A stretch of DNA of 62,839 bases, filler included, from Collodictyon triciliatum (taxonomy: Eukaryota), in the NCBI GenBank assembly GCA_043381765.1. It is 17 parts of 17 records of this genome, joined end to end, with 100 filler letters (N's around TTAATTAATTAA, not from the genome) between each part and the next. Parts side by side here need not be neighbours in the genome. Positions count along the whole stretch, not along the records: positions 15,532 to 19,070 come from JBHJMP010007174.1; 16 more parts are not named here. One strand, 5' to 3'. Every line of letters begins with the position of its first letter. The stretch's first letter is position 1. Below, in pieces: positions 15,760 through 19,170 of the stretch. A program made the translations under genes and the position numbers. Below the pieces are notes generated by a model that made no database searches, was not told the origin of the DNA, and saw only the letters and a list, made by a program, of their open reading frames with translations.

Positions 15760-16866
15760 CTGAAGTCCTTCGCGTCTGCACATGGACGGGAATGTGTTGA
15801 GTCTTGTGTCCGCGACTCGACTTTGTTGCTCAATAAACAGGGTATTGGGCTTCTAATGTTCCACATAGCCCGACACAATTTGCACTATTTACACAAGGAT
15901 AATTCAATTTTTATGCTCTATGCATGAATAAACTTCTATATGAATTATAGCAAAACATCGACTAAGTATGCAAGTGCAAAACAAAATACGAAGTAAGAGC
16001 AAAATAGAATATCTCATTGCACAAAACTTACGGCTTTCGCATCCGGGCATAGTGGAGAGCCTCGCTGACTTTGCGTGTGAAGCAAACTTAGTTGCTCGAT
16101 AAACAGCGAATTGAGCTTCGAATGTTCACATAACTGGCACATATCGCACTATTTTGACAAGAGAAATTCAATTTTTGTGCTCTATGCATGAATAAATCTT
16201 CAATACGGATTATGACAAAAACATCGACTAAGTATGTGCAAATGCAAATCAAAATGCTCAAAGTGAAGAGAAAGCAAAATAAAATATCTGATTGATTAAG
16301 ACTTACAGTTTTCCTATCCGACATAGTGGAGAGCCTTGCTGACTTTGCGTGTGTGAAGCAGACTTTGTTGCTCATTATACAGGGAATTGGGCTTCGAATG
16401 TTCCACATTACCCGACACAGAATGCTCTATATTTACACAAGAGAAATTCAATTTTTATGCTTCATGCATTAATAAACCTTCAATATGAATTATAATAAAA
16501 AAATCGACTGACTGTATGTAAGTACAATGCAAAGTGCTCGAAGTGAAAGGCAAAATAGAAATATCTGATTGCTTAAAACTTACGGTTTTCGTATTCGGGC
16601 ATAGTGGAGAGCCTTTGCGGTCTTTGCGTGTGTGAAGCAGACTTCGTTGCTCATTATACAGGGTATTGGGCTTCGAATGTTCACCATCACCCGACACAGA
16701 ATGCTCTATATTTACACAAGAGAAATTCAATTTTTATGCTCTGTACATGAATAAACCCTCTATATGAATTATAATAAAAAAAAACATTGACGAAGTATAT
16801 GCAAATACAATGCAAGGTGCTCGAAGCGAAGATAAAAAATAGAATATCTGATTGCTTAAGACTTAC
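15760..16866 (-). repeat. Tandem ~278-bp exon-intron cassette repeat (exon-like 16705-16584, 16426-16307, 16148-16032, 15884-15760)
   Basis: Homologous blocks on the minus strand. GTAAGT donors at 16866, 16583, 16306, 16031 (spacing 283/277/275), GTGAGT at 15759, and ..AAT(AT)AG acceptors. Confidence 0.8.
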
Positions 16867-18965
16867 GGTTTTCGTATACCGGGCACACAGTACAGAGCCT
16901 TGCTGACTTTGGGTGTGTGAAGCAGACTGCGTCGTATTCCGGCATAGTGGAGAGCCTTTGCGGGTCTTGTGTGGAGCAGACTGTGTCGTATTCCGGCGTA
17001 GTGGAGATCCTTTGTGGGTTGTGTGTGAAGCAGACTGCGTCGTATTCTGGCATAGTGGAGAGCCTTCGAGGGTTGTGTGTCTAGTAGATTTCGTCGACGT
17101 TCGGCATAGTGAAGATCCTTTGCGGGTCTTGTGTGGAGCAGACTTCGTCGTATTCCGGCATAGTGGAGCCTTCGCGGGTTGTGTGTCTGTGAAGCAGACT
17201 TCGTCGACGTCCGGCATAGTAGTGAGCCTTTGCGGGTATTGTGTAAAGCAGACTTCGTCGTATTCCGGCATAGTGGAGAGCCTTTGTGGGTCTTGTATGA
17301 AGCAGACGTCGTCGTATTCCGGCATAGTGGAGATCCTTTGTGGGTCGTGTGTCTTGTGAGGCAGACTTCGTCGACGTTCGGCATAGTAGTGAGCCTTTGC
17401 GGGTCTTGGGCGAGGCAGACTTCGTCGTATTCCGGCGTAGTGGAGATCCTTTGTGGGTCTTGTGTGGAGCAGACTTCGTCGTATTCCGGCATAGTGGGGC
17501 CTTCGAGGGTCTCAGTGTGAAGCAGACTGCGTCGACGTTCAGCACAGTGGAGAGCCTTTGCGGGTCCTGTATGAGGCAGACTTCGTCACGTTCGGCCATA
17601 GTGGAGATCCTTCGAGGGTGCGTGTGTGAGACAGACGTCGTCGTATTCTGGCATAGTGGAGATCCTTTGTGGGTTGTGTGTCTTGTGAGGCAGACTTCGT
17701 CGACGTTCGGCATAGCGGAGAGCCTTCGTGGGTCGTGTGTGAAGCAGATTTCGTCGTATTCCGGCATAGTGGAGAGCCTTTGCGGGTCTTGTGTGAAGCA
17801 GACTGTGTCTCATCCCAACATAGTGGAGAGCCTTCGAGGGTCTTGAATATGAAGCAGACTGCGTCGTATTCCGGCATAGTGGAGAGCCTTCGGGGGTTGT
17901 GTGTGTGAAGCAGACTGCGTCGTATTCCGGCATAGTGCAGAGCCTTCGCGGGTGCGTGTGTGAAGCAGATTTCGTCGTATTCCGCATAGTGGAGAGCCTT
18001 CGGGGGTTGTGTCTTGTGTGAAGCAGACTGCGTCGTATTCCGGCATAGTGCAGAGCCTATGCGGGTTGTGTGCGAAGCAGACTGCGTCGTATTCGGCATA
18101 ACGCACAGCCTTTGTGGGTCTTGCGTGAAGCAGACTTCGTCGTATTCCGGCATAGTGGAGAGCCTTTGAGGGTTGTGCTTGTGTGAAGCAGACTGCGTCG
18201 TATCCCGGCATGGTGCAGAGCCTTTGTGGGTCTTGTGTGAAGCAGACTGCGTCGTATTTCGGCATAGTGGAGAGCCTTTGTGGGTCTTGTGTGAAGCAGA
18301 CTTCGTCGACGTTCGGGATAGTGGAGGGCTTTCGAAGTTGCGTGTGAAGCAGACTTCGTCGACGTTCGGGATAGTGGAGAGCCTTCGAAGTTGCGTGTGG
18401 AGCAGACTGCGTCGTATTCCGGCATAGTGGAGAGCCTTTGCGGGTCTTGTGTGAAGCAGACTTCGTCGACGTTCGGCATAGTGGAGGGCTTTCGAAGTTG
18501 CGTGTGGAGCAGACTGCGTTGTATTCCGGCATAGTGGAGAGCCTTTGAGGGTTGTGTGTCTTGAGTGAAGCAGACTGCGTCATATTCCGGCATAACGCAG
18601 AGGCTTTGTGGGTCTTGTGTGAAGCAGACTGCGTTGTATTCCGGCATAGTGGAGAGCCTTTGCGGGTCTTGTGTGAGGCAGACTTCGTCGTATTCCGGCA
18701 TAGTGGAGAGCCTCTGCGTGTTCTTAGTGTGAAGCAGACTTCGTCGACGTTCGGCGTACCGGAGAGCCTTCGTGGGTCTTGTGTGTGAAGCAGACTGCGT
18801 CGTATTCGGCATAGAGGAGAGCCTTCGTGGGTCTTGTGTGAAGCAGAATTCGTCGACGTCCGGCATAGTACAGAGCCTTCGTGGGTCTTGTGTGAGGCAG
18901 ACTTCGTCGGATTCCGGCATAGCGGAGCCTTTGCGGGTCTTGTGTGTGGAGCAGACTTCGTCGTT
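16867..18965. repeat. GC/CpG-rich minisatellite, ~38 copies of a ~54-bp unit (GTGAAGCAGACTTCGTCGTATTCCGGCATAGTGGAGAGCCTTTGCGGGTCTTGT)
   Basis: Counted by the recurring GCAGAC motif from ~16922 to ~18951. Units are 53-61 nt with modular variants. Confidence 0.95.
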
Positions 18966-19170
18966 TGATAAGCAGGATATTGAGCTCCGAATGTTCACAG
19001 GGCCGGACACATATCACACTATTTACACAAGGGAAATTCAATTTTTATGCTCTATGCATGAATATACCTTNNNNNNNNNNNNNNNNNNNNNNNNNNNNNN
19101 NNNNNNNNNNNNNNTTAATTAATTAANNNNNNNNNNNNNNNNNNNNNNNNNNNNNNNNNNNNNNNNNNNN

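Follow-up and report, generated by a model that had tools for sequence, protein, structure and literature searches.

A Collodictyon triciliatum contig of nested exon–intron and 54-nt repeats, best read as a spliced repeat transcript, largely non-coding and lineage-restricted

The window analysed here is a stretch of 62,839 nt from Collodictyon triciliatum, composed of 17 unrelated contigs with 100-nt spacers between them. Repeated exon–intron cassettes occupy nearly the whole of one short contig, JBHJMP010007174.1 (3,539 nt, positions 15532-19070). Its flanks are other contigs lying beyond the spacers, and the cassette locus is therefore without genomic context; the first-pass annotation had missed both this lack of a usable neighbourhood and the membership of the locus in a large multicopy family, described below. 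The source assembly is fragmented and breaks at simple repeats, and the cassette contig is short.

On the minus strand the contig holds five homologous exon-like blocks, for which the coordinates, lengths and TAG and GT(A/G)AGT borders given in the first-pass annotation were all reproduced (Table 1): ..ATAG stands before each block and GTAAGT after it, except for the last block, which has GTGAGT. The introns that separate them, described at first as homologous, AT-rich and 147-161 nt long, are indeed so, with a GC content of 27-29% vs 46-54% in the exons, and the GC step coincides exactly with the splice motifs in five of five cassettes. Tandem Repeats Finder (TRF) reports a 279-nt unit in 4.0 copies between 15819 and 16932 (81% matches), and a 31-nt intron piece was matched five times at ≤3 mismatches, with no match in 100 shuffles. 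The five homologous intron copies are 85-88% alike; identity among copies is 0.72-0.91 for the exons vs 0.85-0.88 for the introns, the exons being no better kept. The contig starts within a sixth homologous intron (19070-19019), and further cassettes are therefore expected upstream. On the 3' side of block 5 lies a unique intron and then a sixth exon, whose acceptor (15596/15595) was placed by RNA contigs.

Table 1. Features of the cassette contig, in the order in which they are read on the minus strand.
Feature	Position	Strand	Description	Basis
Intron 0	19019-19070	-	3' end, truncated by contig end	Aligns with 3' ends of introns 1-4; 31-nt motif with 1 mismatch
Exon 1	16867-19018	-	2152 nt: 63-nt head, 38 units of ~54 nt, donor	TRF array at 16914-18964 and own split
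Intron 1	16706-16866	-	161 nt, GTAAGT..TATAG, 28% GC	Alignment and splice motifs
Exon 2	16584-16705	-	122 nt, head and single unit; second AG 2 nt inward (start 16703)	Alignment
Intron 2	16427-16583	-	157 nt	Alignment and splice motifs
Exon 3	16307-16426	-	120 nt, sole open frame is frame 1	Exon-exon joins of related copies at both ends
Intron 3	16149-16306	-	158 nt	Alignment and splice motifs
Exon 4	16032-16148	-	117 nt, sole open frame is frame 1	Alignment, frame analysis, X7 loose end at 16035
Intron 4	15885-16031	-	147 nt	Alignment and splice motifs
Exon 5	15760-15884	-	125 nt, cassette head and distinct tail; final cassette exon	Alignment, frames, many related contigs
Intron 5	15596-15759	-	164 nt, unique, GTGAGT..CCAG	Removal in RNA, joint 15595->15760
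Exon 6	15532-15595	-	First 64 nt, truncated by contig end	RNA-placed acceptor

The amplification of a ~54-nt segment some 38 times in the first block, also noted at first reading, agrees with the 54-nt unit found by TRF in 37.4 copies (78% matches, 5% indels) and with the 38 units of our own split. Nineteen units are 54 nt long and the final one measures 60 nt, since it includes the exon tail; none of the 18 internal off-length units (53, 55, 56, 58, 59 or 61 nt) differs by a multiple of three, in line with the earlier remark that indels are often not multiples of 3 with splice signals intact. A 27-nt core of the unit was matched 19 times at ≤3 mismatches (0 in 100 shuffles), and conservation is seen in two blocks of ~14 nt, GTCTGCTTCACAC (34 occurrences at ≤1 mismatch) and GGCTCTCCACTATG (25 occurrences at ≤1 mismatch), which are putative binding sites. 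Nearly every unit contains an ATG. There is no GT[AG]AGT inside exon 1, and the array would be retained in the mature RNA.

Contigs from public runs were compared over 15532-16440 only, a range outside which the 54-nt array lies. The runs comprise DNA (X1), a metatranscriptome (X7), and two labelled with the organism whose RNA or DNA type was guessed (X2 and X5); they gave 46 (X1), 101 (X2), 121 (X5) and 10 (X7) aligned contigs, mostly 85-95% alike, and the family was found in independent runs from three studies. In a word search, the share of the sampled words present was 5-10% in each of the 13 runs, never reaching half, and the habitat labels of these runs were given no weight. Only joints and the letters of loose ends were counted as splicing evidence. 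The removal of intron 5 is seen as a joint 15595->15760 in two contigs of X7 (side 64) and one of X2, and since this joint ends in CT..AC on the plus strand it corresponds to a GT..AG intron on the minus strand. Loose ends of X7 at 16419 (two contigs) and 16035 (one contig) run from the end of a cassette exon straight into the head of the next, free of the intron, and further intron-free cassette joins occur in X2 and X5. By our own reading, the exon 2 joins in related copies start at CATTCTG (three) or AGCATTCTG (one); the inner AG of exon 2 is a possible alternative acceptor. At 15816, in exon 5, coverage reaches 17-20 related contigs in X2 and X5, and no joint occurs among the matches listed for the 46 contigs of the DNA run X1. 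The splicing foreseen from sequence is thus supported by intron-free joins at the predicted borders and by the removal of intron 5, in related copies 85-95% similar and not demonstrably in this copy, and the contig very probably represents a real, transcribed and spliced multicopy family.

Some further details of the run comparison are worth recording. One X7 loose end, at 15867, retains the intron tail, and unspliced RNA or DNA must therefore also be present. Over the bins of introns 3-5 the depth of X7 is zero; gaps in contig cover of this kind prove nothing. Joints that go back along the contig were considered as back-splicing and rejected, the copies being aligned one cassette out of register. 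Within the window, blastn with the cassette gave 0 of 96 matches outside its own contig, and neither a 22-mer of the unit nor one of exon 6 was matched in metagenome contigs, nor did DNA scans of prokaryote genome contigs and viral contigs give a match.

The view that no known family is involved was supported. Eleven ORFs of the region had no match in Pfam, three word-indexed protein searches found none, and among 1.84 billion protein representatives a single weak repeat match was obtained. This protein, P0001 (E = 6e-6, 211 aa, a singleton), has a 16-residue repeat resembling one frame of the 18-residue unit, and was rejected as a homologue, being a single chance unit match multiplied through repetition. 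The language-model recognition score was 985 vs the 2300 reached by 91 of 100 real families, and the ORFs of the array score as unnatural. Rfam gave 0 matches even at E ≤ 1. No collodictyonid family of this sort was met with in the literature, and the unit peptides and motifs gave only chance matches in ribozyme papers.

We propose that the contig carries part of one gene out of a large family, lineage-restricted and of RNA polymerase II type, whose members would give transcripts spliced at ordinary GT..AG introns and would have repeated exons held to no reading frame. Such a gene may have grown by unequal crossing-over at two nested levels, the outer one being the 279-nt exon-plus-intron cassette (at least six copies here) and the inner one the 54-nt unit within the exon (38 copies in one exon). 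Splicing would leave an RNA in which GC-richer modules follow one another, each repeating GTCTGCTTCACAC and GGCTCTCCACTATG, with ~40 copies on the fragment, and the repeated part would act, if at all, as RNA: a repeat transcript resembling hsr-omega, multivalent and non-coding, which templates no defined protein. A lineage-restricted, spliced, mainly non-coding repeat transcript is our best reading of the contig; to the non-coding nature of the repeated part we assign a probability of roughly 45%, and the RNA may have a function.

The array, which is without any coding signature, favours a non-coding or long-decayed sequence. Periodicity of 3 bases is absent (entropy by codon phase 0.43/0.41/0.44), and pN/pS stays at ~1 whichever of the six frames is read (minus strand 0.85/0.68/1.27, plus-strand control 0.98/0.74/1.10). 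The three frames contain 3, 4 and 3 stops. An apparent depletion of stops under a uniform mutation model (P = 0.003) disappeared under a null that keeps shared variants, where the count of 8 compares with 18.2 +/- 8.7 expected (P = 0.11, not significant). Among those listed, seven of seven exon indels in related copies are of 1 or 2 nt. The codon-usage score, trained on three ORFs only (2,225 codons), is ≤0 in 17 of 18 minus-strand exon frames vs +0.05 to +0.57 in three long ORFs of the window.

The first-pass annotation had hesitated between a non-coding RNA and a diversifying or decayed protein gene, and the evidence points both ways: the array speaks for the former or for long decay, but exons 2-5 keep an in-phase open frame. 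In the spliced model a single frame is stop-free across these exons (485 nt), the other two having 5 and 7 stops; a TGA lying 5-7 nt inside exon 6 closes it, and the resulting ORF has 234 codons. Exons 3, 4 and 5 have one open frame each, mutually in phase, and the open path is present under four of four tandem-acceptor choices. This frame, together with the lack of both RNA structure and a known RNA family, counts against the non-coding reading, and it is also an argument for the main rival, which we hold to be the less probable of the two: that the contig is a frameshifted, decaying or mis-assembled copy from a fast-evolving protein gene family, with hypervariable Cys-containing repeats, cassette modules of ~40 residues, 18-residue sub-repeats and a conserved C-terminal part from exon 6 onwards. 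Hypervariable repeats accompanied by many pseudogenes are the pattern of surface or secreted repeat proteins. Consistent with such a gene, the open frame has 3-4 Cys per module, the exons are GC-richer than the introns, as expected for exons of coding origin, and in an X5 copy, at 15598, the tail of exon 5 is shorter by 2 nt, which in our own reading shifts the open frame into the sole open frame of exon 6; exon 6 is also identical in an X7 contig, and simulation yields more stops than the array contains, at the two P values given above. However, the in-phase chain is weak evidence, with a chance of ~0.07-0.1 by our own arithmetic, and exons 2 and 4 (most of it, for exon 4) read the homologous cassette DNA in other frames than exons 3 and 5, so that no module sequence is conserved as protein. 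The protein-gene explanation must also accommodate an array in which half of the units shift the frame and neither pN/pS nor periodicity gives a signal, the 1-2-nt exon indels of related copies, and the absence of a homologue, a Pfam domain or a high language-model score.

Two minor points concern the same exons. A plus-strand ORF over 15533-15700 was rejected, the seven listed differences falling 3/2/2 on codon positions 1/2/3. Three differences, at 15794, 15797 and 15800, lie 3 nt apart and would be silent if the exon 5 tail were read in another frame; they are too few to weigh.

Exon 6 looks better conserved than exon 5. In X7 record 24, the only RNA contig across both exons, it shows 0 differences over 64 nt vs 8 differences and 2 gaps over 90 nt in exon 5 (~91% alike), which agrees with a protein tail that is conserved or with an ORF further downstream. 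Another way to view the repeated exons is as part of a conserved gene that begins to code in or behind exon 6, for which they would form a spliced untranslated leader of great length or an alternative first-exon region upstream. Transcripts that extend at least 197-230 nt beyond the contig end, the uniqueness of this exon and the lack of coding constraint on the repeats agree with this idea, which we nevertheless regard as unlikely. There is no ATG in the 64 nt of exon 6, and a 47-residue query covering it found no match among proteins of 84-2000 residues. The leader would be longer than 2.7 kb, and almost all of its units have an ATG; upstream ATGs in a long leader hinder scanning in eukaryotic initiation, and here they would impede it strongly.

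The 54-nt unit is stop-free in all three sense frames, and one may imagine that the repeats are translated frame-agnostically, a multicopy family thereby yielding a combinatorial range of mosaic Cys-containing repeat proteins, whose diversity would come from the choice of frame and not from sequence change; we consider this very unlikely. It is equally doubtful that the indels of the units and the paired TAG|AG acceptors, separated by 2 nt, serve to switch the frame of the ribosome, and we give as little weight to the corollary that each unit would offer three alternative 18-residue peptides and each cassette exon two versions.

A small-RNA host gene, with intronic snoRNAs or miRNA-like RNAs, or with phased small RNAs from the 54-nt array, is slightly less credible still. 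The introns are conserved as well as the exons or better, and the layout recalls the SNORD116/115 snoRNA host-gene arrays, in which tandem cassettes have non-coding, poorly constrained exons and a C/D-box snoRNA in each intron. The introns here differ from those in lacking boxes, a stable fold and any Rfam match: the six introns contain no C box, nothing within 1 mismatch of TGATGA apart from one TGAAGA, and no CTGA, and the intron consensus folds at -9.7 kcal/mol with 1 covarying pair (single-intron z +0.69). Against shuffles, the folds of exon, array and intron have z between -1.07 and +1.68, with no extra stability, and the small-RNA precursor suggested at first thus finds no support. Nor is there support for a tRNA-like element or SINE, ARAGORN having found 0 tRNA genes on the contig. 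Finally, an inert satellite or assembly artefact with accidental splice-like motifs, the outcome without transcription, splicing or other copies that the first-pass annotation had allowed for, is largely refuted and the least probable reading, since, despite the similar divergence of exons and introns and a short contig in a fragmented assembly that breaks at simple repeats, a large multicopy family occurs in independent runs of three studies, the exon joins in spliced RNA contigs fall precisely on the GT..AG borders foreseen, and the GC step lies at the splice motifs in all cassettes.

Repeat-built genes known from other lineages share parts of this architecture. The Balbiani ring secretory protein genes of Chironomus have a hierarchical unit made of a constant Cys-containing region and amplified short sub-repeats, one of them with an intron in each unit; the unit here is likewise hierarchical, but those genes have an intact frame and encode known secreted proteins, whereas no frame is kept here.

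In spider silk genes (Argiope MaSp2 and the flagelliform spidroins), iterated exon–intron 'ensemble' repeats run in a single frame; the protein units that they specify are nearly identical (mean identity 93.5%), and the introns are ~97.6% alike (PMC9779670). As in the silk genes, our contig has tandem copies of an exon with a homologous intron, small units nested hierarchically within the exon-delimited unit, introns homogenised at least as much as the exons, and growth that would proceed via unequal recombination. It departs from them in that intron likeness is 85-88%, frame-shifting units make up half of the total and protein units are not conserved; tandem homologous exon-plus-intron units are thus present, and a single kept frame and purifying selection are not.

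The hsr-omega lncRNA of Drosophila comes from a single locus with one intron, has its repeats outside the spliced cassette, and carries a known nonamer bound by hnRNPs (bioRxiv 10.1101/695486). The likeness lies in a spliced transcript with a long stretch of tandem repeats and no long conserved ORF, whose repeat sequence drifts fast and whose splice-junction regions and short repeat motifs persist; the difference is that here we have a multicopy family with many cassette introns and the array inside an exon. Transcription and splicing (in related copies only), the absence of a conserved long ORF and the persistence of short motifs were all found.

If the non-coding reading holds, the contig would belong to a family of long RNAs, spliced and built from repeats, in a freshwater protist that branches deeply, and would offer a clean case of splice signals outliving any reading frame. 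To our knowledge, almost nothing is known of the non-coding RNA of these lineages. Should the coding rival be correct, the family would be one of fast-evolving, lineage-specific repeat proteins with many dead copies. Under either reading, two nested levels of unequal crossing-over would be at work in one gene, and the locus serves as a warning case, as each of the three array frames will lead gene finders to predict long false ORFs.

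The five minus-strand blocks have the coordinates and lengths reported in the first-pass annotation, and all carry its splice borders, with ..ATAG ahead and GTAAGT behind (GTGAGT after the last block). The intervening introns (161, 157, 158, and 147 nt) have a GC content of 27-29%, versus 46-54% in the exons. Tandem Repeats Finder detects a 279-nt unit in 4.0 copies (81% matches) and a 54-nt unit in 37.4 copies (78% matches, 5% indels). Each small exon is composed of a 63-nt "head" plus one unit, while exon 1 has the small-exon head followed by 38 units, being indeed an inflated version of the same exon. 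At up to 3 mismatches, a 27-nt core of the unit gives 19 matches and a 31-nt piece of the intron gives 5, with none for either in 100 shuffles, and two blocks of ~14 nt persist in the repeats, recurring 34 and 25 times. Two nested levels of unequal crossing-over would account for this anatomy. The contig begins inside a further homologous intron, indicating that more cassettes lie upstream.

The cassette gene is cut off at both ends of its contig. The window is formed by 17 pieces of 3.53-4.5 kb each, roughly ordered by length and separated by 100-nt spacers (44 N + TTAATTAATTAA + 44 N). The rest of the window consists of contigs unrelated to the cassette contig, so that the locus has no usable surroundings beyond 15532-19070, and genes facing each other across a spacer are not genomic neighbours. 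A blastn search with the cassette as query found 96 matches in the window, none beyond its own contig. Simple repeats are very common (65 Tandem Repeats Finder rows in 62.8 kb), and contig ends are often perfect microsatellites or long homopolymers, as at 15343-15431 (AAACAG)n, 19171-19317 (AAAT)n, 8009-8149, and 11639-11791; the assembly evidently breaks there.

Coordinates of the cassette locus and of other features in the window
Feature	Positions	Strand	Description
Cassette contig	15532-19070		3,539 nt, one whole piece of the window
Spacers flanking the locus	15432-15531 and 19071-19170		
Partial further homologous intron	19070-19019	minus	contig begins inside it
Exon 1	19018-16867	minus	2152 nt
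Exon 2	16705-16584	minus	122 nt
Exon 3	16426-16307	minus	120 nt
Exon 4	16148-16032	minus	117 nt
Exon 5	15884-15760	minus	125 nt
WD40 ORF	55620-59168	minus	intron-free, 1182 codons, nearly all WD40 repeats (20 matched stretches)
PITP/PITM-like phosphatidylinositol-transfer gene pieces	60181-62316	minus	IP_trans, PITM beta-sandwich, and LNS2 matches

A search of public sequencing runs returned 13, each with only 5-10% of the sampled words, and assembled contigs from four of them were aligned on 15532-16440 at 85% likeness, leaving out the 54-nt array. These were X1 (type given as "DNA?"), X2 and X5 (guessed as "RNA?", each from a named organism), and the metatranscriptome X7, with 46, 101, 121, and 10 matched contigs, respectively. 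Most of these contigs are 85-95% alike to the locus, and only 1 (X1), 5 (X2), 5 (X5), and 0 (X7) are at least 99% alike, which indicates that the locus is one of many diverged members of a large family.

The family is both transcribed and spliced. A joint linking 15595 with 15760, skipping 164 nt with CT..AC on the plus strand (GT..AG on the minus), is found in two X7 contigs (shorter side 64 nt) and one X2 contig; it confirms the last donor predicted from the sequence and places an acceptor at ..CCAG/TTTCTG, so that exon 6 begins at 15595. In X7, the loose ends at 16419 (two contigs) and 16035 (one contig) lead from the end of a cassette exon (..GAAAATC and ..ACC) straight into an exon head (TGCGAT..), and the X2 and X5 joints 16134-16310, 15861-16308, 15861-16035, 16424-16316, and 16426-16035 likewise join exon end to exon head. 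The rows listed for the DNA run X1 contain no joint. Family members are thus spliced at the predicted borders in two studies, the evidence being from related copies and exon 1 lying outside it; the initial proposal of splicing holds to that extent. Exons 2 and 3 begin with TAG/AG/CATTC, at 16703-16705 and 16424-16426 (minus strand), and in related transcripts, on our reading, exons of this AGCATTC type start with CATTCTG in three joins and AGCATTCTG in one. Since these joins begin at two points, two acceptors 2 nt apart, the choice of which changes the frame, seem to be in use, either within one gene or between copies.

Of the 38 array units, 19 measure exactly 54 nt. The 18 internal units of other lengths never depart from 54 nt by a multiple of 3, in agreement with the earlier remark on frame-breaking indels. 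Exon 1 has 3, 4, and 3 stops in its sense frames, and unit variability does not follow a 3-nt period (0.43/0.41/0.44 bits by phase). For pN/pS, the sense frames give 0.85/0.68/1.27 and the antisense controls 0.98/0.74/1.10. The long ORFs, which reach 394 codons, are explained entirely by a consensus unit that is stop-free in every sense frame, and a protein language model rated the 394-residue ORF as unnatural. New stops number 8 against 18.5 expected (P = 0.003, uniform model), but this depletion is not significant (P = 0.11) when the null model preserves the variants that units share. With a small training set, the codon-usage score is +0.05 to +0.57 for the three long window ORFs used in training, and zero or below in 17 of 18 sense frames of the six exons. 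Conservation is no higher in exons than in introns (0.72-0.91 versus 0.85-0.88), and the seven exon indels listed for related copies all measure 1 or 2 nt. Exons 3 and 5 share one reading frame of the homologous DNA, whereas exons 2 and 4 mostly use a different one; no protein module is conserved.

The first-pass annotation had offered either a non-coding RNA or a decayed protein gene. We favour a non-coding RNA for the repeated part, with a probability of about 0.45, given that the array lacks a coding signal and that the repeated exons have drifted, with ~10% divergence per unit, without protection of any frame. The nearest functional likeness would be to spliced lncRNAs that carry repeats, such as hsr-omega, in which splice-junction regions and short repeat motifs persist while the remainder drifts (10.1101/695486). 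The cassette repeats also keep short motifs, the two ~14-nt blocks, which may be binding sites.

The main rival, somewhat less likely, is that the locus is a decayed member of a repeat-protein family that evolves fast and has a conserved tail. In the spliced model one frame runs stop-free through exons 2-5 to a TGA that lies 5-7 nt inside exon 6, and the other two have 5 and 7 stops through exons 2-5; exons 3, 4, and 5 have exactly one open frame apiece, mutually in phase. By our arithmetic, with the open frames as they are, such an in-phase chain would arise by chance with a probability of roughly 0.07-0.1. Exons of coding origin are also suggested by the strong GC step at the splice sites. 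Spider silk genes have iterated exon-intron ensembles that would match the layout of such a family, except that they keep their reading frame (PMC9779670).

Also on the side of coding, in a single RNA contig across exons 5 and 6, exon 6 is identical at 64/64 positions and exon 5 has 8 differences and 2 gaps in 90 nt; something downstream of the repeats seems to be under constraint. It is unlikely that the repeats serve a downstream gene as its long untranslated leader. On the plus strand, 15533-15700 is open for ~56 codons, antisense to exon 6 and to the last part of intron 5; by our count, differences between related copies there have no third-position preference, and it is probably not a gene.

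A small-RNA host gene is highly improbable, and the suggested small-RNA precursor found no support: Rfam gave no matches at gathering scores over the window or at E <= 1 over the contig, ARAGORN found nothing, and C box, near C box, and CTGA motifs are absent from all six introns. Folds of four exons and two array stretches are no better than shuffles (z -1.07 to +1.68), one intron tested gave z +0.69, and the consensus fold common to four introns has one covarying pair and an energy of just -9.7 kcal/mol. Least probable of all, beside the spliced transcripts of the family, is an inert satellite or artefact.

As first stated, the locus matches no known family: Pfam had no match in 11 ORFs of the region, word-indexed protein searches had none, and no homologue, family, or paper turned up. 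Run over 1.84 billion representatives, a full HMMER search gave one weak, repeat-on-repeat match, to P0001, a protein of 211 residues that comes from an ENA contig of 21.5 kb and carries a 16-residue tandem repeat (GSPLCRFTTLSVHHSV). The likeness of this repeat to one frame of the 18-residue unit is probably due to chance. The sequence family is new, but of a kind already known, with its tandem exon-intron cassettes and its spliced repeat transcripts. Unusually, several traits come together here: numerous cassette introns whose splice signals are intact, an array within an exon, a large expressed family, and the lack of a reading frame.

Elsewhere in the window, the WD40 ORF contains, at 58231-59063, a run of 126-nt tandem units that are 81% alike, which points to recent amplification of repeats within it. 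The PITP/PITM-like gene is probably split by introns, as its three domains fall in separate ORFs. A short minus-strand ORF at 27864-28268 weakly matches P-loop, NACHT, and STAND NTPase entries, in each case under the Pfam cut-offs.
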